DNA of 64,000 nt, taken from NCBI RefSeq assembly GCF_004010195.1, contig NC_057730.1, forward strand, positions 46,985,065 to 47,049,064. Direction: 5' to 3'. Positions 1 to 60,800 of this stretch are shown piece by piece (position 1 is the first letter of the stretch; every line of letters starts with the position of its first letter). This DNA is from Chiloscyllium plagiosum (Eukaryota). The notes beneath the pieces are model-generated. The model was given only the letters and a program-made list of their open reading frames with translations, was not told the DNA's origin and searched no databases. The position numbers and the translations under genes are program-made.

Positions 1-880
1 AAATCTCTCCTCTCACCTTAAAAATAATGCTCCCTAGTCTTGAAATCCCCCAATCAGACACATGCCATTCACCTTAGCTATACCCATGCTTTTAGAAAGC
101 TTCAAGGCCACCACTCAAAATCCTATACTCCAGTCAAAAACATTCAAGCCTATCCAGCCTCTCCTTTTAACTCTAACTATCCATTCCTGCCAACATCCTA
201 GTAAATCTCTTATGAACCCTTGCCAGCTTAATATTATCCTTCCTCGAACAGGGTGACCAGAACTGGACACAGTATTCCCTAAGAGGCCTCAGCAACATCC
301 TGTACAATCTAAATATGACATTGCAAATCCTATACTCAAATGGGCTGAGCAATAAAGGCAAGTATGCTAAATGTTTTGTTAACCATCCTATATGTGCTGC
401 AAACTTCGATGAATTATGCACCTGAACCCCAAGGTCTCCTGTTCTACCACACTACCCAAGGCCCTACTTTTAAGTTTTGAAGTCCTGCCCTTGTATTTAT
501 CAAGATATCTTGGTAATCTTAGGTTACCTGCTTCACTAGATGACCAACTTTGGTGTTGCCCGCAAACTTATTAACTGTGCCTTTTATATTCTCATTTAAA
601 TCATTTAAACAAATGAAACAAAACTGGACCCAGCACAAATACCTGAGAAGCACTGCTGGAAACAGGCCTCCTGTCTGAAAAACCCCTCCACCACCATTCT
701 GTCCCCTACCATTAAGATAATTTTGTGCCCAATTGACAAACTCTCTCTGAATCCCATGTGATCTCACTTTACTAATTAGTCTACCACACAGAACCTTGTC
801 AAGGGCTTTACTGAAGTCCAAGTAAACAATGTCTTACCCCTCTGCCCCCATTAATCTTTTTGGTTACTTCCTCAGACAAA
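1..880 (-). mobile_element. CR1-type LINE fragment (decayed RT ORF2)
   Basis: Minus-strand remnants MDFSKALDKV..., NKFAGNTKVG (FADD motif), EYCVQFWSP...RFTRMLAG. Confidence 0.85.
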
Positions 881-2615
881 AGACACTCGTTACCCTTGCC
901 TCTTTGACCAAGCTCATGCTTATCTGCCCTCTGACATGATATGATACCACAACTTTTCAGTAGAGCTCCATTAAGAGTCTTAGGGTAAAGGACTACAAAT
1001 CCATGTTTCATTCTCCAAGTGAAATAAAGATTTGATCCAAGTTAAGGCAAGAATATACAAGTTAATTTAACATTGAAGTGGAAATAAAGGATCAATCCAG
1101 TGACAATGAACAAAGCTGGAAAGAGCTCAGTAAGATGGGAAATTGAGACAAGGTACTGCTGAGAAAACAAGCACAATAAAGGAGGTGCTCAAACTTAGAT
1201 TAATCTTTCAAGGTGTTTGCTGATCATCCAACTCAATCTCACATCCCTCAGCGTCATTCCAACAATTCAGTCAATTGAGTCAAGAACTTGCGCATCTTAG
1301 TCCTAAACAACAAACCCCGTTATACATACTTCTAATCATCCTGTTCACAGACATTATGCATAGACTGAGGGTTGGTGGGATCTGAACCTGGACGTTCTGA
1401 CAGAGGTACAGGCACAAAACGTCACCTCAAAAGCCCTCCTGCAGCTTCAACATCTCAGCATCAGGATTAGTGTGTCACAGACCTTTGGATATTCTGAGGT
1501 TATGACCCTGCACAGTCCCTGAAGAATATTTACATTTGATTTGATTTGTACAAACTCTAGGCAATTCATGCTTCATCGTCTTGAACATTCCTCAAGTTAA
1601 ATCTAATGGATATGGTGCACATTCTAAAGTGAAAGATCTTTAAGCAGAGAACAAGCCTCAATACAGTAAAACTTCAGGTTTGGTCTCAAATGCTATGCAT
1701 TATTTTATTAGTTACACTTATGCTCCAATTCCTTGGTAACAAATGCTAACATGCCATTTGCTTTAATTAATTGTTTACTCTAAGTTAACATGGGCAATTA
1801 CATCCAGGAGCCTCACAACAAACATTTCCCAGGGTTTTTAAAACAAGACGTTCTGCCATATTGTATTCTCTTTCATATTCTTGCCCATTCTCAACGTGTA
1901 TCTTTTCTGTAGCCAGCCATTCACGTTTGAGTGTTAAATCAATGTTTTGGAAAATGAAGAGCGGTTATAAAGCAACAGAACTTCTTTGTGGCAGTCTTAG
2001 CCAAGACAGACAGCAGATGAAACGGGTCAAGGATATCAATAAATGAAAGTTTTGTAGACTAAAAATAATAGTTGAGCGAAATTTGTGAAGAAATGGCAAC
2101 ATTTTCACTGCTCCAAAGGGCAAAACATCAATAAAGCCAATCGCCCAATGGAAATATAAACTAAGCATATATCATACAACATAGATCAAAATATTCTTGA
2201 TGGTGGGTATTCAGATTAGTCCCTTTTAGCATCAATTTATTAACTAATTAGAATAAATCAATTAACATGAAGGGTACACAGTGAACTGTGCTCTTCTGGT
2301 CTCAACTTCCAGTCAAGTAGCCACCAGAAAAATTGTTCTTTGGTTATTAATATAGAAAGGCAAGCAACATTAAAAAATAATAAAGTGAACAGACTTGCTA
2401 ACTTAGACAAATCTACACAATATGAAACACTGATTACACATCTTAAGGCAAATCCTCTTCACATCACTGAATACTTTCCCACATTCAGTGGTAGAATACA
2501 GCAATTCTATGACTGCATTTTCTTCTTTGTATACAGGCCTTACATTTGAGTTCTGCATTACTTTAGTCACAACCTAATTATAAAGAAAGCAATACTTTAC
2601 ACTGTCATAACTCAC

Positions 2616-2729
2616 CATTTCTCCACAGAGAGTCTTCCACAGACACAAGCGTTAATCTGCACCAATCCAATTAACTGGAATATTGAAGATTGCATGCACC
2701 ACTTGCAGGTAGATCTAAGAACAGCCGAG
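2616..2729 (-). other. Candidate USP7 cassette exon with premature stop (poison exon), 114 nt, intron 2
   Basis: Branch point CTAAC then tatttcattttag| acceptor; consensus donor AAATG|GTGAGT. Spliced to exon 2 it reads ARLFLDLPASGACNLQYSS* (TAA at 2673-2671). Confidence 0.7.
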
Positions 2730-4669
2730 CTAAAATGAAATAGTTAGAGAACAGAAGAGGACGGTGGGTGGTTTATGTCTGTGTGGAAGATCCTCCTTTA
2801 GAGAAGTGGGAGTTATCACTATCATGTACTATATTCTTTAAATCAGATAATTTGCAGGCATTTTCGCACCATAGATGTACCATTTACAGGACTACAGGCA
2901 AGTGTACATGGAGACAGCATCTTTTTCCAATAGGGAGAGAAGAGTCAATAGTTAAGTACACAAGGACAAAAAACTACAGAAACAAATGTCTGCAAGCTCC
3001 TAGGATTTACTTACCAGCCAATTATTTGTACAAAGTGCATACTGCAGGGGACTGCCACAGCTTTTATTTTACCCAATACTTTTGTTCTCCTTTTTATTGG
3101 CAGAGTACAAAGTCTCTTTAATTATTCTGCATTCTTCTAATACTCAGGTCACCTCAAAAACACAATTTTCACCCCAAGTTATTGAAATTATCTAGGGTCT
3201 TTCAGCATCACTTGTCATTCTTCTTCTGTACATTCTGGTGACATCAAAATTGGGGCTTGAGGAGGAAAACATGGCAAAGCTTTGGTAGTGAGATACAATC
3301 TTCCTGACTTTTTTAAACCTAATATGCTGAAATATGTAGTCCTCATCAAGTTACTTGTTAAGGCCAAAAGAAAAATAAAACATTCCTCCTACCCCTAGTG
3401 GATTATTTAGATCTTGATGAAAGCCCACGTCCAAAACAAGGTTTGTTTTGCACAAGTAATCTTGTGCAGAATGCACAAGGTAAATAAGCTCATTCAACAT
3501 ATGCTCGACTGGACCCCCAGTTATTGCAATTGAGCTCAGTTTCAGAGGTCACAGATACTGATTGCCTCAGTTTTCCCAACATTTTGTCCCTCAGGTTTTA
3601 ACAATGGGTCTAGAACTTAACATTGCTTTGCCATTGTTTATGTTGCATGCTGTGCCTCTACCAAGTTATTGAAGGCCAAAATACATTGATCAAAGACTGC
3701 AGATTTTCAAACAGCTGGAGGTAGCTTCCAATATGTGAGGCACTGAGACTGGTTGAGACAGTTCAGCCACTACACCCACAGCAGTGTTGCGGTTGCACAA
3801 GTGAAAGACATCCACAGATACAGTGAAAAGACAGACCAATTTTGGAAAATGGAAATTGAATAAATGCTACTCCCTCATGTGTTTTTTAGGTTTACATCTT
3901 TAGTTAATGAAGTTAGTAATCCAAAAGAAATGGGGGTGGGTGAAAAAGCAAATTACCATGACAACTTACTCACTTTTACACATTCCCAACTACGTCTGGA
4001 AATAATTGTTCTGTGACTCAGCTCAAAAAGCAGCAGTTTGTCAAAGGACAACACGAATGATACCCAAGTGTCATAAGCTCTTACAAGAAATAGCAATACT
4101 CAATCATCAGTACCACTCATGGAAGGATGAGGAAGTAGTTATGAAGTTTCTTCAGGTTTGGAATTTTGAGAAGTATTGTGCAGAGCAGATTGCTGAATAT
4201 AGTCAAGGCTGAGTTAGACAGATTATTGATCAACAAGGGAGTCAATGATTTTCGGGCTCTGGGGAAAAAAATACAAACAGGAAAATAGAGTTTACTCCCA
4301 AATCAGAGCCACTTAAGAACAGCAGAGTAGGCTTTGCAGTCTGAATGTTCTGGTCTTCCTTGTGTTTCTTACGATCTTATTTCAGGAGACTTAGTCAGTG
4401 ATGCATCGCAAGAAAATGAGGCAAGAAATATCACAGAAGAGTTGCATATATTTTCATAGAAGAACACTTGATTCAACAGTCGTTTTTTGAGCAAGGGGAG
4501 CAGTAGAATGACCTTCTATCACTCATTCTGCTCCAGGGGAATAATCAAAAGTGCTGCAAAACCTGGCTACATTGAAGTGACAAGAAACATTCATGTTGCA
4601 AAGCCTGGATACAATCTCCCACAAATGTTTAACCATGAATGAAATTGAAATTCTTTTCTCCACTCATGT

Positions 4670-4890
4670 GACATGAGCTTTTATTGCCCATCCTTAGTTG
4701 CCCTTGAGGTGATGATGAAGGGCCTCCTTGAACCACTGCAGTCCAAGTGCTGTCGCTAGACCCATAATGCCATAAGGAGGGAACTCCATGACTTTTACCT
4801 CGTGACAGTGAGGGAACGGCAATATATTTCCTAGTCAAGACAGTGAATGACTAGATGGGGAGCTTGCAGGTGGTGGCGTTTCCACATAAA
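4670..4890 (-). mobile_element. Old LINE/SINE 3' tail (gggatgggcaataaa-type)
   Basis: tttattgcccatccttagttgcccttgag motif, with related copies at ~22740, ~39920 and ~46065. Confidence 0.55.
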
Positions 4891-5061
4891 TGCAATTACT
4901 GCTTTCAGTTCAGGAACCAAATATTTGACAATAAGCTCACCTCCTGACTTGCCAAAGCTGCTGCATAATCTTTAAAACAGAAGTCGTAATTCCAATCAAG
5001 TCTTGCTCTCTTGCTCAGACAGGTGCAGCAGCAACATCACAACAGCCTGACAAATCAATTG

Positions 5062-5780
5062 TCCTAGGGAGTGTTGCTGAACAAAGAGACCGCGGAGTGC
5101 AGATTCATAGCTCCTTGAAAGTGGAGTCGCAGGTAGATAGGATAGTGAAGGCGGCGTTTGGTATGCTTTTCTTTATTGGTCAGAGTATTGAGTACAGGAG
5201 TTGGGAGGTCATGTTGCGGCTGTACAGGACATTGCATGCAATATTCCAACAGTGGCCTAACCAGTTCTATCAGAAAGATGTTGTGAAACTTGAAAGGGTT
5301 CAGAAAAGATTTGTGAGGATGTTGCCAGGATTGCAGGATTTGAGCTACAGGGAGAGGCTGAACAGGCTGGGGCTGTTTTTCCTGGAGCTTCGGAGGCGGT
5401 GGGATGACCTTATAGAGGTATACAAAATTATGAGGGTTATGGATAGGATAAATTGACAGTCTTTTCCCTGGGGTTGGGGAGTCCAGAACTAGAGGGCACA
5501 AGTTTAGGGTGAGGGGGGAAAAGATATAAAAGAGACCCAAGGGGCAACTTTTTCATGCAGAGGGTGGTACGTATATGGAATGAGCTGCCAGAGGAAGTGG
5601 TGGAGGCTGGTACAATTGCAACATTTAAAAGACATTTGGATGGGTATATGCATAGGAAGGGTTTGGAGGCATATGGGCTGGGTGCTGGCAAGTGGGACTA
5701 GATTGGGTTGGGATATCTGGTTGGTATGGATGGGTTGGACTGAAGGGTCTGTTTCCATGCTGTACATCTCTATGACTGTG
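5062..5780 (+). mobile_element. 5'-truncated CR1/HER1 LINE 3' end
   Basis: ORF 5097-5456 (QVDRIVKAAFGML...LERVQKRFVRMLPGL) and 3'UTR ending gggtctgtttccatgctgtacatctctatgact. Confidence 0.92.
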
Positions 5781-7729
5781 ACTTTATACACTCCTTCTAT
5801 TGACATAGATCTCACCCATAGCCAAAGCTTCTTCAATGACTAGAGAACCAATTATACTTTCTACCCAAAGGGACATGGCTGAATGTACTGAACATCCAAA
5901 ACACGCACAACCAGTATTCCCACCACCTCCCTCCCTGCCAAGCTACAGCACAAACACTGCCTCCTCCACATTTCACTCCAGCCCACGAAGAATCACCCAG
6001 ACTCAAAACGTTAGCTTGCTCTCTCTATGGATGCTGCCTGACTCACTGTGACCTCCAGCATTTCATGTTTTCAGGCCTGACTTAACACATGGGTCAAAAT
6101 TCTGTAATGTTTGTCTAACATTAAAAACACTTCCATTACATGCTCAACAGCTATCCAGGGCAACTCCCATTTACAATAGCTATGAACAGAAAAATTAGAT
6201 GATCACTCAGCCACTTGAGCCTGCTCTGCTAGTCAATAAAGGTAGAGGTTAAGCAAATTACTCCACATTTTCATCTACCTCTTTCATTCCATCTTATCTA
6301 TAATTTACCTCTCACTTAAAAATATTCAAAAGATGTTACTTCAATCAACTTAAAAAAAAAAAAGGTCCTAAGACATTACCCTTTGAGAAAAACGTTTCCT
6401 GATCCCAATCAGTATCTCTTGTTTTGAAACTGAAGTTCCATATCCCATTACGTATAAAACTACTGCAATGCCTAAATGCAGATCAACAGCATTACTGCTT
6501 AATTGGAACAAAAACTGGACAATTGCCTGATGACAAAAAAAAAAATTGCTGACTTGCGACATGACTGGATAAAGCAGGAAGGAACTCAATGTTCTCTTTA
6601 GTTAGCACCGCAGTAGGCCATATCATCTTTCAAAAGCACTCCCTGCTTTAAGCCAACTCTTTGCCTGACCTGGATTTGCAGATTTTCTTGTAACTGAATA
6701 ATTCTGGCTTTCAAATTCAATGAATAACTACTTTCAAAAACATTAGCACAAGTTTGACAATTCTGAAACTGCACTGAAGATCGGCTAAAACGTCAGTGAC
6801 TTGAGGGGAAACCTCTACTTTACAAATTTCAAATTCAGCACTATAACCAAACCCACTAATGTAGCCCTTAGGGACCAATATTGAGAAGCATCAACTTAGG
6901 GAAAACATTCTTAAAAATATAGTTAAATTTGAAAAAACATTTTTGCAGATTTTCCATAATAAATCTCATCCTATAATGAGGAACAAAGCAAAAGAAAAAA
7001 AAAATCAACAGCAAGACAAATTCAAGGGAAGTACAGTCTTAAACCAGAGGAGGGAAGATCATCTGACCAAAATGCTAGTGCAATGGTGAATTTCTTAAAA
7101 TGCTCATTCCCTCTTCCACCTCCTCTATCAAATAACTGAAATTCCTATTTATATGCAGAAGTTGAATGAATGAGGAAGAATTGAGGAAACTCTCATAACA
7201 TGCTCCAAGTAGGAAAATAATTCCTTGTGACCAGGATTTTTAATCAGAGAGCACCTACCCCATGGGGAGGCATCTTGCTAGAACTGTGTGCAATTCTCAA
7301 TCTTCCGTTTAGCTGCGCAGGCATATAAAACCCACAAGTGTTCATTTGTAGAATATCTGATCTGGAGGAGAATGTGTATAATAAATCTGGTCTTCAAGAA
7401 AGATTTAGCAAAATATAACCAACAGCATTGTTATTAGTCCCATTTTCATCAAAACTGTTGTTCAACCTTAAAAGTTTCACAATAGGTATCAAAACATCCA
7501 AAGCTATTTTAATAATTACTGCTACATATCTAGAATTAAAGACAAAACAGTTCTGCCACCAAACAAAAACAACTTTAGTCACATTTACTATCTTGATTCA
7601 GAATATTAAGTTGGCATATGCATTTGAGATTGTCAATGTATGAAATATGCCTTCAAAAAATTTTTTTGCAAACCTTTACCTAATTCAAAGGAAGTGGAGC
7701 TAACTTCTTTGCTAGGTTTAAAAACTTAC

Positions 7730-7826
7730 TCGTGGATCATCTATTCTCCAAATTTTAGGGAGCTACCGGAAACGGATTTCAAGGAGTTTCAATGTTTCCA
7801 GTTATTCCACCTTTAGTATTATTCAG
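7730..7826 (-). other. Second candidate stop-containing cassette exon, 97 nt, intron 2
   Basis: Acceptor cttttttcccctaaattgttttaag|CTGAATAA, donor CACGA|GTAAGT. In the USP7 frame it reads A-E-stop. Confidence 0.5.
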
Positions 7827-8554
7827 CTTAAAACAATTTAGGGGAAAAAAAGATACTATCAAAACACCAGTTGCAGAGCCTCAGGTTTCATTCCCCAGCA
7901 TTTTGCATTATGTAATAACAAACTAAACCTAGCACATTTGTAAATCAGTCACAATCTATTATTAATCTTCAAGTGGAATACTTCCATGTAACCCATTTCA
8001 AGTACATTTATTCTTGACTGATTTTCTCGTTTGAAAAAGCAAGAACAATCAGAAAATATACATGGAAAGGAGGTCAAAGTGGATGGTATGTCATCTTTTC
8101 ACAGCCAATCACGTGTTACGACATTGTCCAATCAAATGAATTGGAGAAATCCACACCAAGCTGTCAATATTCAGCCCAAATGTATGGAGGTCAAATCAAT
8201 GGCTGCTGCTTAAGCAATCTATTGATGATATTAAAACATCCTGCAGAGGGGGAGGGAGAAAGGAAGTTCAGCTGTGTAACCGGACATTCAAATATCCTTA
8301 AAACAGATATGACAAAATATTTTCATTTCCAGCACAGCCATCACTACTTTGCTATGCAAAAGAATTAGCCACCCAACATAAAACTTAAGCCATGAAGATA
8401 GAAAGTCATTGGTTGGATGTGAAGTCTTAAATAAAATAGTTTCAGTTTATTGTTCGAATAATTTTCCAGAAACATTTTTCAAGTTATGCCTTCTACCAGC
8501 AAACATTTGTAGAGCAAACTTTTGAAAAATAGATGCTAGCCTAACTTAAGACTA

Positions 8555-8740
<186 letters not shown>

Positions 8741-9329
8741 TTACTGCTAAAGGCAACAGGTTTTCACCACAGAATTTGCGTTTTCTTAAGCATTACTCTA
8801 AATTAGGACACTTAACATTTACACTTTTCCTAATAATCTGTAGATCATAACTGCATTGTATGTTTATATCACAAAATAAGGTTACAATTTAAGACTGGGG
8901 AATATTAAAGACATCACAATCAAATTACAGGAAATGCAAAAGCCACATTTGAGGCCGTTTTAAAAAAAGCAAATACCATTCCAACACAAAAAATGACCAT
9001 AACATTTAATTACTAAGAAGAAAGGACAGCAAGTTAGTCAGTGTGCCACTATTTGGTTTACACTGTGCACTGAAGTGTTTTATTCTCACTTCAATATTAC
9101 TTCTAAAGAACAGCCGTGTAGCAAGGTAGCAGATGGCACTAAAAAATGCTGGATAGCAGTAATTTCCTATTGCAGTAACTTCTTGATATGTAATCAGAGG
9201 CCAGGCTAGAAGGAAAGTCAACTCTCTGAACTCACGTTACTAACGAACTATGATTTGCAATACCATAACCCCATTGAAATCAGTTCTGAAATAAAAACAA
9301 GTATCACTATCTCCATTCCTCTCTAAATT

Positions 9330-9810
9330 TAGGAAGAACTTATATGCATTGGAGGCAGATCAGAGGATGCTTACAAGAATCATAACTGAATGAGCAAGTT
9401 GCCTCAAAAAAGACTGGACAGGCTGAGCTCCTTTCCACTGGAGTGTAGAAGAGTAAGTGATTTGATTGAACTCCATGAGGTCTTGAGGGTGGACATGGAA
9501 AGAATGTTTCCTTATCAGAGTCAGTCGAGAACTAGGACGTATGATTTTAAAATTAGGGATACCCTTTTAAGATAGAGATGAGATTATCCCTCCTCACAGC
9601 TTGTGCTACTTTGGTACTCTGACTCAAGGTCATGGGGTCAAGGTCACTTTTTAAATAAAAGACAGAGCTACATAAATTCTGGTTAGGCAAGGGAATCAAA
9701 AATCGTCAGGGATAAATGGTAATGTGGAATTTAGAACACAACAGATCAGCCAAGACCTTGAATGTCAGAGATTGCTCACGGGGTCAAATTGACTACTTGA
9801 GCCCCATAAA
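9330..9810 (+). mobile_element. Old CR1 LINE 3' fragment
   Basis: Decayed LDRLSSFPLECRR..DLIE..ERMFP motif and CR1-like 3'UTR. Confidence 0.7.
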
Positions 9811-12800
9811 AACAAGTATGGACGTAAAACTAGTACAGCAAAATATTTTCCAAATTGAGCTGGAAAACTTGTAATATGGAAAATAATCACTTGAACAACT
9901 TTATCACTTGGGTTTGGTTTCCTCTTTGAACACTGGGTTGTCAAGAAAATTATGGGAAGAAAAATCTTCCTAGAAGACTACGGCTTACAATAGCTACCAT
10001 AAATTATGGACTAGATTTGTTAACACTATTAACCTAAAAATCACACTTGCCAGTACTTCCAAGGAGCAGAACCACATGCAACTTGGAGTTGTATAGAATT
10101 GACAACTACATAATTCTAGTCCCAAGTTTTTAAGACAGGGAAAAAATAAGAGGCAGTAAACTGAAATATGTGGTAACAGCAGCCTAACTGCAGAAGATTC
10201 TGCCTTTTACTTGCAGACAGTTCTAAGCAAATCTGAAAGCAATAAACTCCTGATTAACCCAGAACCTTACTCCACCTTCAAATAGAAGGAAGAGACTTCT
10301 AGGTCTGACTGCACTGTATTTCACTCAAAATCAAAACACAGGTTTACTGAAAGTAGTTTCCTTAAAACTTATGGTTCACATTCATCCAACTGTAGACATC
10401 AACACTTCATGAGCTTTGTAGTAAGTAATCAGCAAAGAAAGCAAGTATGAAAAATGTGAATGACATTTGTGACACTTTCACTGTGCATTTCATTACAAAG
10501 AGGTGGCTCGTAAAATACGGTGTTAGATCAATGATGTCCTTAAATGCATTTGTAGCAAAAACAGACCCAGTAACACAGACCGAGGCAGCTACGCAGGGGA
10601 AGCTCTCAAGACATACCAAACCTGATTGTGAATGGTTGACAAGATGTCTTCTATAGACCAGTTTATCCTTCCCAGCAAAATGATCCGGAAAGATTCTAGG
10701 CTCAGCATGGATGGTGTTGCCTGGTGAGAGCTTCCAATTGATAAATACAAGCTTTTTTTCCCCAGGGGGTGGTGAGCACAGCAAGATCCCACTTCAGCCC
10801 CATCAACCTGGGCTAATGTACCTCTGCCATACCCTCTTCTCCCACTCTGCGCCCAGACATATTGGTTTGCCCCCAGGGAAGCAGGTTCCTCCTGAACCAA
10901 TGCAACAGACACTTAATAGGGTCGCTTTGCAAGACCTCAACTCAGACAGTGCTAACAGCGGTCACAAAGGCTGATCAATTGCTCTTTGATGTGAGGACAC
11001 CACCTCTTGACTTGCACAGAAGAGCAGAATAGGCCATTTGGGCATGCAATTTCACTCCACCATTCAGTATGATCATGGCTGATCATCCAACTTACCACCA
11101 TACTAGAACTTCTATTCTGAACCACTCCAAGCACACTAAAGAGAGATTAGTTTAGTTTGGGATTAGGGTTGTCATGTACTGGATGGACCAAAGGGTGTGT
11201 TTCCATGCTGTAGGACTGTAAGAACTCTATCAGTAAACTAAGTCATTCTTGAACAATGTACCTAATTTGCACATAAAACTAACAGTAAATTAGATAATTA
11301 TTGTTTCGTAATTAAGGGAGAATAATACAAGACATGAAATGGTGTAACTGGATCTTTTACTTCAAGCAGCTCAGATATCGCATCGGAATTGAATGACAGA
11401 ACCATAGGGAGACAATGTAGCACTTGTCATCGATTTAGGTGTTAAGTCCAAACAGCGCACTCAAGTCCTTTAGATGAGCTGGAAGCTAACCTTCTGGTTC
11501 AGACAATCAACCAAATTAAAAACCTGAAAGGACTGCTTCTTTGTGAACAGAAAGGGATGTCTGTATGTGCTTTGCAAGACACATCCCAGGCTCAAAAGGG
11601 AAAATAAAAGTTCACCTGCACATTTGATAATGATAAATTGCAACATAGAAATTAATATTAAACAAATCAGCAACAGCAAACTGAATGACAATTGGGGTCT
11701 AGCCAGTGCACAAATGCCACAATAGCACACCAACTAAAATTTTAATTAATTGGTAGCCATAATTTGTGAAATGCAGAGAATGACTAATTCTCATCACTAA
11801 ACCTTGGCTGAGCAGAAAGCACCAGTTGGCTTTAGATGCTACATAAAAACAGTAACTATGTGAAAACAGAAGAAGTCTTTCCTTGCAGATAGTGACAAAA
11901 GAAGCAACTGCACTGTGTATTATGGTTACATAACAGATCAAAAACAACTTTTCCTGATGGTTCTAAAGCAGCCAAAACAACAAAATATATTCTACAGCCT
12001 ATTTAGTCGGATTGCTGTGTCATGGGCTTACAAATGCTTTTGTTGCCAAATGCAAACTGCCTATTTAGGCAGATATCCTTACTTTGTTACATTGAACAGT
12101 AAAGCAATGATCCAAGTGATACTGCCCTTTCAGGAAAGTAATGTGTGAAGGACAAAATTCCAACACTAACTTCCAGAGGGAAATGAAACAATTTAAGACA
12201 GTTTAATCCCTAAACTGTCCTTAAAGAATGCCTTAACCATGCAAAAATCAATAAGGTATGTTAATCAACAAGTCAAATCACTAGCCTTTAAGCATACAAT
12301 TACTGAAATTTAGTCTTTTGCACCAGTGCCATTACTTCAAATCCTCTGAGTCATTGTCCATTTTTTTCAAGTATTTTATCTTTGAGGTATTATGGCTTCT
12401 AACACAAAGTTATTGCGAGATATATTCTAATGTTCATTTGTCCAGCTACATGCATTAAGAGACAATGCAGCTTCTTGTATGGCCCTCATTAAATGTTTTT
12501 CTAAAATGTATGCAATTCCTTTTGGCTAATGATCAAGTCTGAAACTCCTTGTTATTAATTAAACAGGGGAAAGACTTGCATCATATTCATATAGAACATT
12601 GAACAGTAATTCCTTCTTAAAACTTCATACTCTTTCAAGGATATCCATGAGCATGTTTCCTTTACTTTTTATTTCTGCTGGAGGAAAATTGAACCTTGGT
12701 TCAGAAGTAAACCTCTTTTATTCAAAGATATAAAAGAGCAAAACGGATAGATGGAAATGAGACATAATAATCAAAACATATACAATAGTAACAAGTCAAA

Positions 12801-35199: not shown

Positions 35200-36660
35200 T
35201 GGAGAAGTGAGAAAAGAAGGAAAGAGAGATTGTCAAGCTTGGGAGATGCAAAGCGGTCGGGCTTTCACATTCCACGTGAATTCAGATATTCCCCCCCCCC
35301 CCCCCCCGCCCCCGTCAATGGGGCTGAAAGCAAAAGCGCACACGCTGATGGGGAACGGCCAGGGGATTGAACACAGGGAAGGCTGCAGCATGGCGCCTGT
35401 GGCCTACGCGTGGTTCCCATTACCGGGGGGGGGGGGGGGGCAGGGATAGGTGAGAAACCCCGCGCTCACTCGGCCCTGAGGCCTAACCGTCACTTCACAC
35501 TTTGCTCACATGAACAGAGAGAGATAATTTTAAAAAATTGAACCGGATTTCAAAGGATGAGGTAGGACCTGGGGGGGGGGGGGGGGGGGTGGTGAAGGGA
35601 TTGGGAAGGGTCGGGGTTGGGGGAGAGAATAGCCCTCCCCCCCACACACAAACACCAGGCCTCGGTCTCGCCTACCTTCCATCTCCATCTCCTCGGGCTC
35701 GCTGAGGTGCTGCTCATTCTGCTCGCTCGGCTTGGTGCAGTGGTTCATGGTCTCGGAGAAGGCCTCGGCCTTCCTGGCGGCGGCGTTGGCGGCCGGCGGC
35801 GGCGGCTGGGACGACGTGAGGGACGGCTCGCGGCTGGCAGGAACGGAAACCCGGACGTATTTGCTCGCTATGCGCCCAATCTCGGCCGAGTGCTGCGCTC
35901 GAAGCTCCCTCCCCCCTCCCCGTTTGTCACGGCAAAGGGGGAACTCGCCTCGACCTGCCCCGAGAAAGGTGCGGGGAGAGCCAGCGCCTCTCCCCCTCCC
36001 CGGAGGAGTTTTTTTTTGAAACCTTCCCCCTAGTGAGGAGAGTGCAAGGGTGTGGGTGGGGGGGGGTCTTGGCGGTGTACTTTTAGAGAGAGGGGGGGAA
36101 ACGTATGGGCTGTTTGTTTGTATGGGGTTTGGGAACGGGGGTGGGTGAAGGGATGGGGGGGGGTGGGAAAGGAGAGGTGGGAGGGAAGAGGAGGGGGTTT
36201 GGCTGATTGTGACTTGTTGTCGTCCCTGTGGCGGGGCAGACGGCCGCCGGGGCCCCCACCCCCCGGACAGTGGTTCTGGTCCTCCTCCTCTTTTCCTCAG
36301 GCTGCACAGTCCTCGTCTCTTTCCTTTTGGTTTATCCCCCTCCTCTCTCTCTTTCTTTCTTTCTTTCTTTGACTCTCCCTCTCTTCTTTCTTCCTTCCTT
36401 CTCTCTCTGGCCTCCGTTCTCCTCGGCCCCGCTGGCTCCGCACGGTGGAGAAAATGGCGGCGCGACGCAGATGTCAACTCGACACCGCGCAGGCGCAGCT
36501 ACGCGGCTCCGATGGGAAAGGGGGCGGAACCAAGTGGAGACAGGGGTGGGCTTTTGTGGGAAAATGGGCGGGGCCCGGTCGCAAGGGGGCGGAGTTTAGG
36601 AAGGGGTGGGCCGTCTGATGTCACGGACATCCTCCACAACACCAGTATTTTCAGGGTGGG
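35200..36660 (-). promoter_or_regulatory. CpG island / USP7 promoter and long GC-rich 5'UTR
   Basis: Sharp rise in GC and CpG against an AT-rich, CpG-poor background. YY1 motif AAAATGGCGG at 36451-36460, NRF1-like GCGCAGGCGCA at 36487-36497, GC boxes GGGGCGGA at ~36521 and ~36586. No TATA box seen. Confidence 0.9.
35676..35748 (-). CDS. USP7: USP7 coding exon 1 (MNHCTKPSEQNEQHLSEPEEMEME + 1 nt)
   Basis: ATG at 35748-35746 in Kozak context GAGACC-ATG. 24 codons plus 1 nt, ending at donor GAAG|GTAGGC. Matches the vertebrate USP7 N-terminus (human MNH...[13 protein letters not shown]). Sits in a CpG island. Its phase-1 end fits exon 2. Confidence 0.95.
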
Positions 36661-37199: not shown

Positions 37200-38655
37200 A
37201 TACATGACTAGGGTAGGAATAGGTCCAATCAAGGATAGTAGTGGGAAGTTGCGTGTGCAGGCTGAAGAGATTGGGGAGACACTGAATGAATACTTTTCGT
37301 CAGTATTCACTCAGGAACAGGACATTGTTGCCGATGTGAATACTGAGTCACAATTAAGTAGAATGAATGGCTTTGAGGTATGTAGGGAAGAGGTGTTGGA
37401 AATTCTGGAAAGGGTGAAAATAGATAAGTCCCCTGGGCCTGATGGCATTTATCCTAGGATTCTCTGGGAAGCAAGGGAGGAGATTGCAGAGCCATTGGCC
37501 TTAATGTTTATGTCCTCGTTGTCTACAGGAATAGTGCCAGAAGACTGGAGAATAGCAAATGTGGTNNNNNNNNNNNNNNNNNNNNNNNNNNNNNNNNNNN
37601 NNNNNNNNNNNNNNNNNNNNNNNNNNNNNNNNNNNNNNNNNNNNNNNNNNNNNNNNNNNNNNNNNNNNNNNNNNNNNNNNNNNNNNNNNNNNNNNNNNNN
37701 NNNNNNNNNNNNNNNNNNNNNNNNNNNNNNNNNNNNNNNNNNNNNNNNNNNNNNNNNNNNNNNNNNNNNNNNNNNNNNNNNNNNNNNNNNNNNNNNNNNN
37801 NNNNNNNNNNNNNNNNNNNNNNNNNNNNNNNNNNNNNNNNNNNNNNNNNNNNNNNNNNNNNNNNNNNNNNNNNNNNNNNNNNNNNNNNNNNNNNNNNNNN
37901 NNNNNNNNNNNNNNNNNNNNNNNNNNNNNNNNNNNNNNNNNNNNNNNNNNNNNNNNNNNNNNNNNNNNNNNNNNNNNNNNNNNNNNNNNNNNNNNNNNNN
38001 NNNNNNNNNNNNNNNNNNNNNNNNNNNNNNNNNNNNNNNNNNNNNNNNNNNNNNNNNNNNNNNNNNNNNNNNNNNNNNNNNNNNNNNNNNNNNNNNNNNN
38101 NNNNNNNNNNNNNNNNNNNNNNNNNNNNNNNNNNNNNNNNNNNNNNNNNNNNNNNNNNNNNNNNNNNNNNNNNNNNNNNNNNNNNNNNNNNNNNNNNNNN
38201 NNNNNNNNNNNNNNNNNNNNNNNNNNNNNNNNNNNNNNNNNNNNNNNNNNNNNNNNNNNNNNNNNNNNNNNNNNNNNNNNNNNNNNNNNNNNNNNNNNNN
38301 NNNNNNNNNNNNNNNNNNNNNNNNNNNNNNNNNNNNNNNNNNNNNNNNNNNNNNNNNNNNNNNNNNNNNNNNNNNNNNNNNNNNNNNNNNNNNNNNNNNN
38401 NNNNNNNNNNNNNNNNNNNNNNNNNNNGGTAGGTATAGGGCAGATGTTAGGGGTAGGTTCTTTACTCAGCGTGTCGTGAGTTCATGGAATGCCCTGCCAG
38501 TAGCAGTGGTGGACTCTCCCTCATTATGGGCCTCTTTATGGGCATTGGATAGACATATGGAGGATAGTGGGCTAGTGTAGGTTAGGTGGGCTTGGATCGG
38601 CACAACATCGAGGGCCAAAGGGCCTGTACTGCGCTGTATTCTTCTATGTTCTATA
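37200..38655 (+). mobile_element. Young CR1 LINE spanning an assembly gap, nested in an older minus-strand CR1 3' end (37085-37200 and 38655-39190)
   Basis: Uninterrupted GETLNEYFSSVFT..KSPGPDGIYPRILWEA..PEDWRIANV before the gap; GRYRADVRGRFFTQRVV and 3'UTR after it. Confidence 0.9.
37566..38427. other. Assembly gap (862 N)
   Basis: Run of N. Confidence 1.
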
Positions 38656-57800: not shown

Positions 57801-60800
57801 ATTGCTGATTATCAACCCAAAATCAGGCTGCTACCCAACACCAGCAGCTAGTCTCTAAGCAATCAATTTTTATTTTCCAGTATCAAGTTGTGCCGAATTA
57901 TCATAAAATAAAGATGTTGCGGCTGTTGGTGGGAAAGAAGGAGTCCGCGTGTGGAAAATGATTGATTACCTGCATATAGAAAAAATCCTTTGTGTTCACA
58001 GAATTTGACGTCTTGACAAGGACATGCAGAACAACATATGCAACTGATGACATCCTGCACAAATCTGGGCAATAACAAAGTCCTTTACTCTTCTTTGCTG
58101 TTTCCATTGGGAAAATAGTGAAGTTGTTTTTGAAGAGAGACATCAGTGATTTGCTTCATCAAATGCCAACTCAAAACTGGCCAGTGTTACTGATGTCCCA
58201 CTGACATCCTGGAAGGAGGGTGAGGTGTAAAAGTCATGACCTTTTATATCGAAAAGAAATGCAGCCCCTGCGCTGGAGATTGTTTGCATATTATCTGGCG
58301 ATGCTGCGTACAGCAGAGTTGTATTGCCTTTTCCATAAACCCACAAGCATGTACCCTGGCCTGTATACTCAGTTGGAAAGGTAATTGGAGCCGTCCTTTT
58401 ACTACTCACCATCCCTTAAACTTCATCTTTATAGTCTTCCACCTCCACATCCTGCTATGCACTAAACAAAGAGGGCTTCCCATAAGTGGTAGGAAGTGTT
58501 GGAAGAGATGAAAAGCCTTTAAAAATGGAGTCACTTCCTCTAAAACAGCACCTCGCACAAAGTAAAGAATATTCATTGAGTCAGACAATCATAGAGCACG
58601 GAAACATTCCCTTTGGTCCAACTGGTCTACACCGAACATAATCCCAAACTAAACTAGTCCCAACTGTCTGTTTCTGACTGATATCCCTCCAAACATTAAA
58701 GAAGAAGCAAGTTCCAAATGGTGAACACTTGCACATCCCTCTAAGAAAATGTTAATTCGAACAAAATACTTCTGGATCGATGGATGCCCAAGTTATCCAT
58801 CTGGGCAGGATAAAAGGTCAGGTTAATCACACTCAGCATCACAAAGTTGTGAAACTGTGAAAGTGGTGTAACATTTTTTTCAAATTAAAATGATTTTGAT
58901 GACTTATTTTTGACAGGAGTTTCTGCCCAGTCATGCCTCACCAGAAAATATCCTGCTGTGAACATTACCAAACTGTTGACTATTTCGTACATAATTTCAT
59001 TGCTTCTAAGCTTGTAGCTGACACATTAAGATGAGTAAAGTTTTCTCCATTAACCAAAAGAGCCATCCAGTGAAATAATTGCAGACTCATGGAAGCATTC
59101 AAGATAGGAACTAGACAGATTTCCATTTCTACTGAAGATTAAAGGAGGACAATGACGATAGTTTGAAAGATGCAGTGGGTTGAGTGTTTCATTGACAGGT
59201 ACCTCTAGGTTGATAAATGAGTTTTGTTTCAACAGGTCAACTCTCCTGCATGCAGGATTGAAGTGATTGAGAGTGGCTTGCGAGTCTGATGCAGACTGGG
59301 CAGCAACATTGCAGTCATTGCCTGAAGCCAACTCTAAAGCATTTTGGCAAAGCCTCTGCAAAATCAGCTGCGATGGACTGAACAGTGTTTGAAGAAATGC
59401 AGTTACTATTACTGTACAGACTGGCTTGCTGTAGTTCATTTCAGCTCCCCCCACCCACCAACAAGTGCTGTAAGTGCCGTTGTGTGCAGTCCGTTGCAGC
59501 CATTAAACATATAACTGAAAGATGGTTTCAGGAATGATGCAGCTGAAAATGTGTGGATTTTCAGAACTGGGAGACAGCCAACTACTGAAAGAAGCAGAAT
59601 GAAAGATAAGCAGCTGTCTGTGAAGTTGAATTTCTGAGTAAATCAAAATTGCTGTGCATTTTCCACTCCCGACAAATGCGGAAATGAAAGGAATGATCTA
59701 GACTGGATTCAAATTTATCCATTCAGTAGCAAATATATGAAATAGTCACAGGATTAATTTAAAAACCTGAGCATATTAGTGTAGCAACCCTTCCATCAGT
59801 GCTGGGGAAAGAGTGTTCCAAATTGTACTGCAGCAGGGGACACACCAAGGAGCTGAAAAGGCAACAGGAAAGATTTTGCAGACTTTGAAGACAATTTTGA
59901 ACTCTGCACTGATGTGACTCATGAATGGTATCAGCTTGAGTCTCTGAATGAGAACAGGTAAAGCTTTGCATTATGCTCAGTGACATTCCAGGCTGAATGA
60001 AATTGACATTATTAAAAAAAGAAAAATTATTTGCAGAAGAATGAGCAGAAACATGGGGTAGGATGAAAAGATTGCACAAGATATCACACAAAGGAAATGG
60101 GAGATACAGAGGTCTAACTGTAAAGCATTAAATCAATTGACAGAAAGGATTTCGCTTGAAATAAGCTAAATGAGCCAATAAAGATGGCTGCTAGAGAGAT
60201 GTCAGTTGATGAGTTCAACAAATCACTCTACACCATACAACAGTTTGGCATCATCAGGTCAAAAGATAATAAAAACAGCTGTTACAATGGAGGCCACAGA
60301 AGGAGAGTGTCAAGTAGCTGTAAAGTATAAGGTCGACATCAGTACTTTGTTCAATATAATTAGCTTCACAGACCAAGTGGCTCAAGATGGTAACCAGGAA
60401 TGAAGATCTTAAAAATGACCTTTAAGTTATCTGATGAAGCCAAGAGGTCAAATGGAGTTGAGGTCCAATGCAATCGGAATAAAGAAGACCTCGAATTCCA
60501 GATAGCAGACATTAAGCAAAATCCTCTCAATCCAGCTGAAGCAAGTCTAAAACTTGGATTAGTAGCCCTGAACATGTCAGAAGAGATTTAGGAACAGAAA
60601 CAGAAACAGGCGATTCAGCCCATTGAGCCTGCTCCAGTGTTCAGTATGGTCTTGGCTGATTGAATGCTTCAGTATTTTGGATGCTTGTTGGACTTCTCGA
60701 TCAATTCCGTCACAAATTGCGCCAAAGCCCATGTCACTCAGACCCTTGTAGGATTTCACCCTATGTAGGTAAAGCTTATGCAGAGACTGATGAAACCTGA

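Follow-up and report, generated by a model that had tools for sequence, protein, structure and literature searches.

The window analyzed here, a stretch of 64,000 nt of the Chiloscyllium plagiosum genome, carries the 5' part of the USP7 gene on its minus strand, with exon 3 lying just outside it. Exon 3 matched the USP7 chains of the PDB with an E value of 1e-40, and the exons were placed as follows:

35676 to 35748, minus strand: coding part of USP7 exon 1, with the ATG at 35748 and ending in phase 1, from the sequence and its donor
8614 to 8718, minus strand: USP7 exon 2, 105 nt, phase 1-1, from 71 homologous proteins
L002 8016-7818, starting 1984 nt beyond the window, minus strand: USP7 exon 3, 199 nt

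Intron 2 is 10,597 nt long, and both of its junctions are in phase 1. The segment under study, originally proposed as a frame-preserving poison exon, lies 5884 nt past exon 2 and 4599 nt ahead of exon 3. Its components, together with those of a possible longer form, are the following:

2616 to 2729, minus strand: candidate poison exon in its short form, 114 nt, from the sequence; inclusion not observed in 8 sequencing runs
2616 to 2795, minus strand: putative long form of the candidate exon, 180 nt from an AAG acceptor at 2795, or 177 nt from 2792
2730 to 2772, minus strand: region of the 2729 acceptor, with its pyrimidine-rich run, CTAAC (2747-2743), and AG, from the sequence; few changes in relatives except for a deletion of about 10 nt in organism D
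2671 to 2673, minus strand: in-frame TAA, which would be codon 79 in a message joining exon 2 to the segment
2610 to 2615, minus strand: 5' splice site GTGAGT, predicted to be paired

The 2729 acceptor reads ...tttcattttag, with its AG at 2731-2730, and the donor reads ATG/GTGAGT (2615-2610). The putative branch A, 15 nt before the candidate exon, would be at the short edge of the usual branch-point range. The TAA is located 55 nt ahead of the segment's own 3' junction and 254 nt ahead of the end of exon 3, the former distance being of little relevance because more junctions come after exon 3. All these sequence features (the 114-nt length, phase 1-1, acceptor, donor, CTAAC, the single TAA at 2673-2671, the 55-nt distance and the encoded peptide) were exactly as given in the original prediction, which had missed the upstream acceptors at 2795 and 2792 as well as the long hairpin described below. 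Both long forms also carry an early stop, and the 2795 acceptor has pyrimidines at 12 of 14 positions.

The location within USP7 intron 2 was likewise borne out by the identification of exons 2 and 3. In line with unique DNA free of transposable elements, the candidate stretch gave a single match in the 3.56-Gb genome even at E<=10, a count that is a lower bound, as the search skips common words. No repeat overlapping it was detected in a search of the 144-kb neighbourhood, in which repeats were found at -241..869 and 5061..6065, and no tandem repeats were detected in window positions 1-10000.

Splice signals against the intronic background

In order to compare these signals with chance, a crude splice consensus was defined (donor of at least 8/9, at least 10/14 pyrimidines, and CTAAC), and segments passing it were counted in introns 1 and 2 and in an antisense control. 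Two such segments were found in the 37.5 kb of introns 1-2 versus none in the 144 kb of the control, whereas with a looser branch motif the numbers were three and two, respectively. On this crude consensus, the splice signals of the candidate are thus among the best in introns 1-2 and partly above chance. The in-frame stop, on the other hand, was rejected as a sign of selection, since 87% of random intronic 114-mers hold at least one stop in a given frame (24% exactly one). The decisive non-chance feature of the candidate is its conservation.

Two further exon-like segments were noticed on the minus strand of the same intron. One, at L002 8085-8270 and about 70 nt upstream of exon 3, is 186 nt long, a multiple of 3, and contains one stop between strong consensus signals; therefore, such patterns also arise elsewhere in intron 2. 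The other, at window positions 7730-7855, is a single-copy segment within the repeat-free first 2.5 kb of the intron, with a donor CGA/GTAAGT 884 nt past exon 2 and an acceptor either at 7855, giving 126 nt, or at 7826, giving 97 nt.

Conservation and predicted folding of the element

Sequencing runs matching the window came from seven organisms (A to G), probably cartilaginous fishes, none of the runs being recorded as RNA; 24 runs were listed and 8 of them compared (X1, X2, X3, X20, X8, X12, X13, and X14). Window positions 1000-3500 were aligned at 80% to runs X8, X12, X13, and X14 of the more distant organisms D, E, F, and G, and the only long aligning pieces fell inside one block:

2580 to 2865, minus strand: conserved intronic block of about 280 nt, at 91-94% in D, E, F, and G

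Organism G aligned over 2580-2846 (17 other letters and 2 gaps in 267 nt), E over 2616-2865 (22 other letters and 3 gaps in 250 nt), and F over 2718-2865 (14 other letters and no gaps in 148 nt), while D aligned in two pieces, 2600-2717 (8 other letters and 1 gap in 118 nt) and 2747-2848 (8 other letters and no gaps in 102 nt). The contigs of E and G extend into flanks that fail the 80% threshold, except for pieces of 35-78 nt. Short conserved pieces were seen in E and G at 3364-3439, 2245-2322, and 2413-2476.

Regarding the splice signals, the acceptor AG is kept in all four relatives, in D after the deletion of about 10 nt, which brings CTAAC next to the AG, so this motif cannot be the branch point in D. 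The unpaired pyrimidine run at 2772-2745 is nearly invariant, as expected for an acceptor or a PTB-type site. The premature stop is kept or replaced in the three relatives that cover it: as TAG in E and G, and in D, where the TAA is lost, through a 1-nt deletion at 2677 that shifts the frame onto a TAA at 2654-2652 (frame read by hand). The donor is intact in G and rearranged to a weak form in E, as read from a loose end, and in D it falls in the zone within about 30 nt of piece ends, where differences are not listed. Of the splice sites and the stop, for which the original prediction asked about conservation in relatives, the acceptor AG, a premature stop and the donor of G are retained, but the donor of E is not. 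In contrast, frame preservation, presented in the original prediction as a meaningful trait, did not survive the comparison, as the length of the segment changes by -1 (D), -2 (E), and +2 (G), and the multiple of 3 is lost in every relative covering it. The suggested conservation across all jawed vertebrates is not supported either: in several fish-like USP7 copies (P0071, P0079, P0082, P0084, P0086, and P0087), intron 2 spans about 20-33 codons and reads through in frame, therefore being too short to hold the element.

The sense strand of the conserved block is predicted to fold into a single rod-like hairpin of about 60 pairs, most of them with p>0.9, the ends of which (2848/2572) coincide with the edges of the block:

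2773 to 2848, minus strand: 5' arm of the predicted hairpin, from folding, holding the pyrimidine tract and AAG of the alternative acceptor at 2795
2572 to 2648, minus strand: 3' arm of the predicted hairpin, from folding, holding the donor and the last 33 nt of the candidate exon

The predicted energy of the sense fold was -84.5 kcal/mol (z -4.92, with none of 200 shuffles as good), and that of the antisense fold -74.6 kcal/mol (z -3.37). The sense z score was the lowest of 69 windows tiling intron 2, and the predicted duplex between the arms (-67.6 kcal/mol) was the best of 513 arm pairs, followed by one of -53.2. The two windows with the next-lowest z scores, 3320-3599 (-3.38) and 2270-2549 (-2.81), both on the minus strand, flank the main hairpin and contain the short conserved pieces of E and G given above. 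In a 1.2-kb context, the stem pairs hold p>=0.95. This model places the donor (2616-2610) opposite 2808-2813, positions belonging to the pyrimidine tract of the acceptor at 2795; for the GTGAGT itself (2615-2610), the partner is 2809-2813, with p of about 1.0. The 2729 acceptor is in turn covered by a predicted inner helix. The outer stem contains 9 G-U pairs and two A-C mismatches (2806/2618 and 2791/2632).

The differences in relatives provide a suggestive pattern of pairing, of few sites and short of statistical proof. The three core-stem substitutions with a covered partner (2778 and 2814 in G, 2642 in D) all keep a G-U pair, which by chance would happen about 1 time in 8, and the pair 2828:2593, U-A in the window, is reversed to A-U in both D and E, as judged by eye from loose ends, probably through one event. 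A single interior loop (2626-2628, placed by hand) takes up the indels of both E and G, and the inner helices are mixed, about 6 being kept and 6 broken in a hand count. A search with Rfam covariance models gave no match over 2570-2870 up to E 5, and the stem was absent from the 25 longest of 77 pairs of a gapless inverted-repeat search, which missed it because of its bulges and G-U pairs.

Search for spliced forms, and known USP7 NMD exons

Evidence of splicing was sought in the 8 runs, 7 of them available as contig sets, which drop rare forms, and one (X20) as raw reads with next to no cover and about 1-2x on exon 3. The junctions implied by the original prediction (8614 to 2729 and 2616 to exon 3) were not encountered, and no other spliced junction was detected at the candidate in these runs. 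The exon-3 contigs of X1, X2, and X3 (depth 53, 111, and 248) do not run into the candidate, with joints read from 15 of 63 and loose ends from 24 of 721. In addition, X1 contained one unspliced 3954-nt contig through the candidate at a flat depth of 15.8, and X2 one unspliced 151-nt piece across the donor. In X8, X12, X13, and X14, from the distant organisms, all the ends at splice sites go on as intron. Across this 10.6-kb intron, no aligned stretch spanned both exon 2 and exon 3. As contigs lose rare isoforms and NMD targets are rare, the unspliced contigs amount to absence of proof only. At the protein level, peptides joining exon 2 to the candidate or the candidate to exon 3 were not found among 71 exon-2 and 70 exon-3 short USP7 proteins, and a weak search of the candidate peptide against longer proteins returned 2 candidates, none of which scored. 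A metagenome scan for vertebrate contigs with exon 2 yielded 2 loci, ending 35 and 73 nt past the exon.

Alternative splicing coupled to NMD through intron 2 of USP7 is already known in human, the new part here being the predicted hairpin. The human exon (NMD_in, chr16:8929368-8929543) is listed in PMC13078869 as 175 nt long, between the 105-nt exon 2 and the 199-nt exon 3, and 749 nt past exon 2; on cycloheximide it shows a dPSI of +0.062 (FDR 2e-5), with a gene log2FC of 1.24, and the score of the same source predicts weak NMD for it. The mouse Usp7 exon (chr16:8533609-8533783, also 175 nt) is listed as NMD-stimulating in PMC11188260, its PSI rising from 0.10-0.15 to 0.41-0.50, with a flank PhastCons of 0.896; its equal length to the human exon points to intron 2 as its intron. 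In the literature searched, the USP7 intron-2 NMD exon has so far appeared just as a row in supplementary tables, and no paper was found that describes a hairpin in a USP7 intron or such an exon in shark USP7. USP7 was absent from the supplements of PMC11632617, PMC7347940, PMC8052449, and PMC11162794, whose larger tables, hosted elsewhere, may bear on this claim.

The candidate lies in the same gene and the same intron as the human exon, between flanking exons of matching length (105 and 199 nt). The mammalian exons introduce a stop and, being of 175 nt, shift the frame, whereas the candidate has 114 nt, a multiple of 3, and its 177/180-nt long form is near them in size. Their inclusion has been shown, while that of the candidate was not seen, and the table rows for the mammalian exons mention no hairpin. 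Regarding position, the human exon sits 749-924 nt past exon 2 and the candidate 5884 nt, so that the segment at 7730-7855 (884 nt) fits the human place better. In this comparison by intron, length and place, rather than by sequence, size favours the long form of the candidate and place favours the 7730 segment.

Similar arrangements are described for other poison exons. In SF3B3, a poison exon is covered by a stem-loop that conceals its branch sites, an effect demonstrated by mutation and SHAPE (Li et al. 2024, PMC11162794), and the likeness lies in a conserved local RNA stem hiding poison-exon splice signals, which in SF3B3 lowers exon use. However, the SF3B3 stem hides branch sites, whereas the predicted USP7 stem would hide the donor, paired with the upstream acceptor tract, and USP7 does not encode a splicing factor. 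BRD2 (exon 3b) and BRD3 (exon 5b) have also been reported to carry poison exons accompanied by conserved regions that are complementary and pair with each other (Petrova et al. 2024, PMC10789245), the arms lying to either side of the poison exon of a dosage-sensitive regulator, as they would here; their arms are placed in the flanking introns, in contrast to those of USP7, which overlap the donor and the exon end in a nearly continuous stem of about 60 bp. More generally, complementary regions were noted to flank 25% of cryptic poison exons (PMC11632617).

Proposed structure-gated inclusion and its alternatives

Like poison exons in general, the segment is bounded by canonical acceptor and donor sites within the intron of a protein-coding gene, and its stop, if included, would precede a later junction by more than 50 nt; furthermore, a stable stem is predicted over the splice signals, as in poison exons of the structure-gated type. 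The explanation we consider most likely, with about an even chance of being right, is that this conserved intron-2 element of about 280 nt, with a long hairpin predicted to bury the donor of the stop-carrying segment, is a structure-gated poison exon of USP7. With the stem closed, as it would normally be, U1 would have no access to the GTGAGT donor, the pyrimidine tract belonging to the 2795 acceptor would be concealed, and exon 2 would be joined straight to exon 3, as in the main exon-3 contigs. Opening of the stem, possibly by a helicase or an RNA-binding protein or through the speed of transcription, whether slow or fast, would allow inclusion of the exon, which would measure 114 nt with the 2729 acceptor and about 180 nt with that at 2795, and the resulting premature stop after about 67-78 codons would lead to NMD and a lower USP7 dose. 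The rheostat by splicing-coupled NMD of the original prediction thus gains from a block conserved above its flanks, with AG and stop retained, and from the human NMD exon of the same intron and the mouse NMD exon of equal length, but not from any inclusion seen in the 8 runs.

An autosomal dominant neurodevelopmental syndrome results from loss of USP7 function (PMC10996728), and a conserved stem over splice sites, if real, would be a concrete and testable control point for USP7 dosage. In that case, a deubiquitinase would join splicing factors, helicases, and BET genes among the genes with structure-gated poison exons. In a bolder version, which we regard as unlikely, the mammalian USP7 NMD exon would descend from this element, gated by an ancient hairpin that pairs its own acceptor tract with its own donor, so that one stem would shut both sites and the dose would be set by the frequency of its opening. 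If such a descent were true, an oligonucleotide stabilising or blocking the stem could raise USP7 in haploinsufficiency.

A possible alternative, to which we give a smaller though substantial chance, is that the conserved hairpin is not spliced in, acting either as a decoy unit of splice sites that slows the removal of intron 2 (intron detention) or as an ADAR substrate, with its motifs bound or masked and rarely used. All the contigs over the element in 7 runs being unspliced is consistent with this, as are the intronic depth of 15.8 in X1, where a spliced exon-3 contig has a depth of 53, the decay of the donor in E, where pairing nonetheless persists, and the two A-C mismatches of the outer stem. 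An A-C mismatch in a stem is a typical editing context. However, the AG is kept in 4/4 relatives and the unpaired acceptor tract is conserved, contigs lose rare isoforms, and the runs are guessed to be RNA. As for editing, the X1 contig showed 1 other letter in 2444 nt, none of them in the stem, and the X2 piece none, so majority A-to-I editing was ruled out in X1. Were the element not spliced, it would still be a strongly conserved and unexplained intronic hairpin.

Rather improbable, in our estimation, is conservation at the DNA level, as an enhancer or as the relic of an ancient palindromic transposon, with hairpin and splice signals as by-products. Slowly evolving vertebrate genomes commonly contain conserved non-coding elements, no splicing was seen, and a good fold is predicted for the antisense strand too, which is the behaviour of an inverted repeat. 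Against it, the predicted fold of the sense strand is 10 kcal/mol more stable, with 9 G-U versus 2 A-C in the outer stem, and each run contained one orthologous contig set and no family at 80-85%. The search for copies of a miniature inverted-repeat transposon returned one match in the genome, again a lower bound from a weak search, and no family depth in the 8 runs, a result with which an ancient relic would still be compatible.

Finally, it is very improbable that the segment is a frame-preserving exon whose stop is bypassed by near-cognate re-initiation to give an N-truncated USP7 with a novel 18-residue start, as originally offered: in this genome, the reading frame beyond the TAA continues without a stop into exon 3, but the frame that re-initiation needs is broken in 3/3 relatives, no such protein appeared among the 2 candidates of the weak search or the 70 exon-3 proteins, and an ordinary AUG in exon 3 (MVMPRF) would serve whatever the frame of the exon.

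Elsewhere in the window, a 90-codon open frame at 58146-58415 (minus strand), with no Pfam match, resembles a coding exon of a neighbouring gene, and an assembly gap of 862 N, at about 37570-38430, falls in a LINE-like element upstream of the USP7 promoter.
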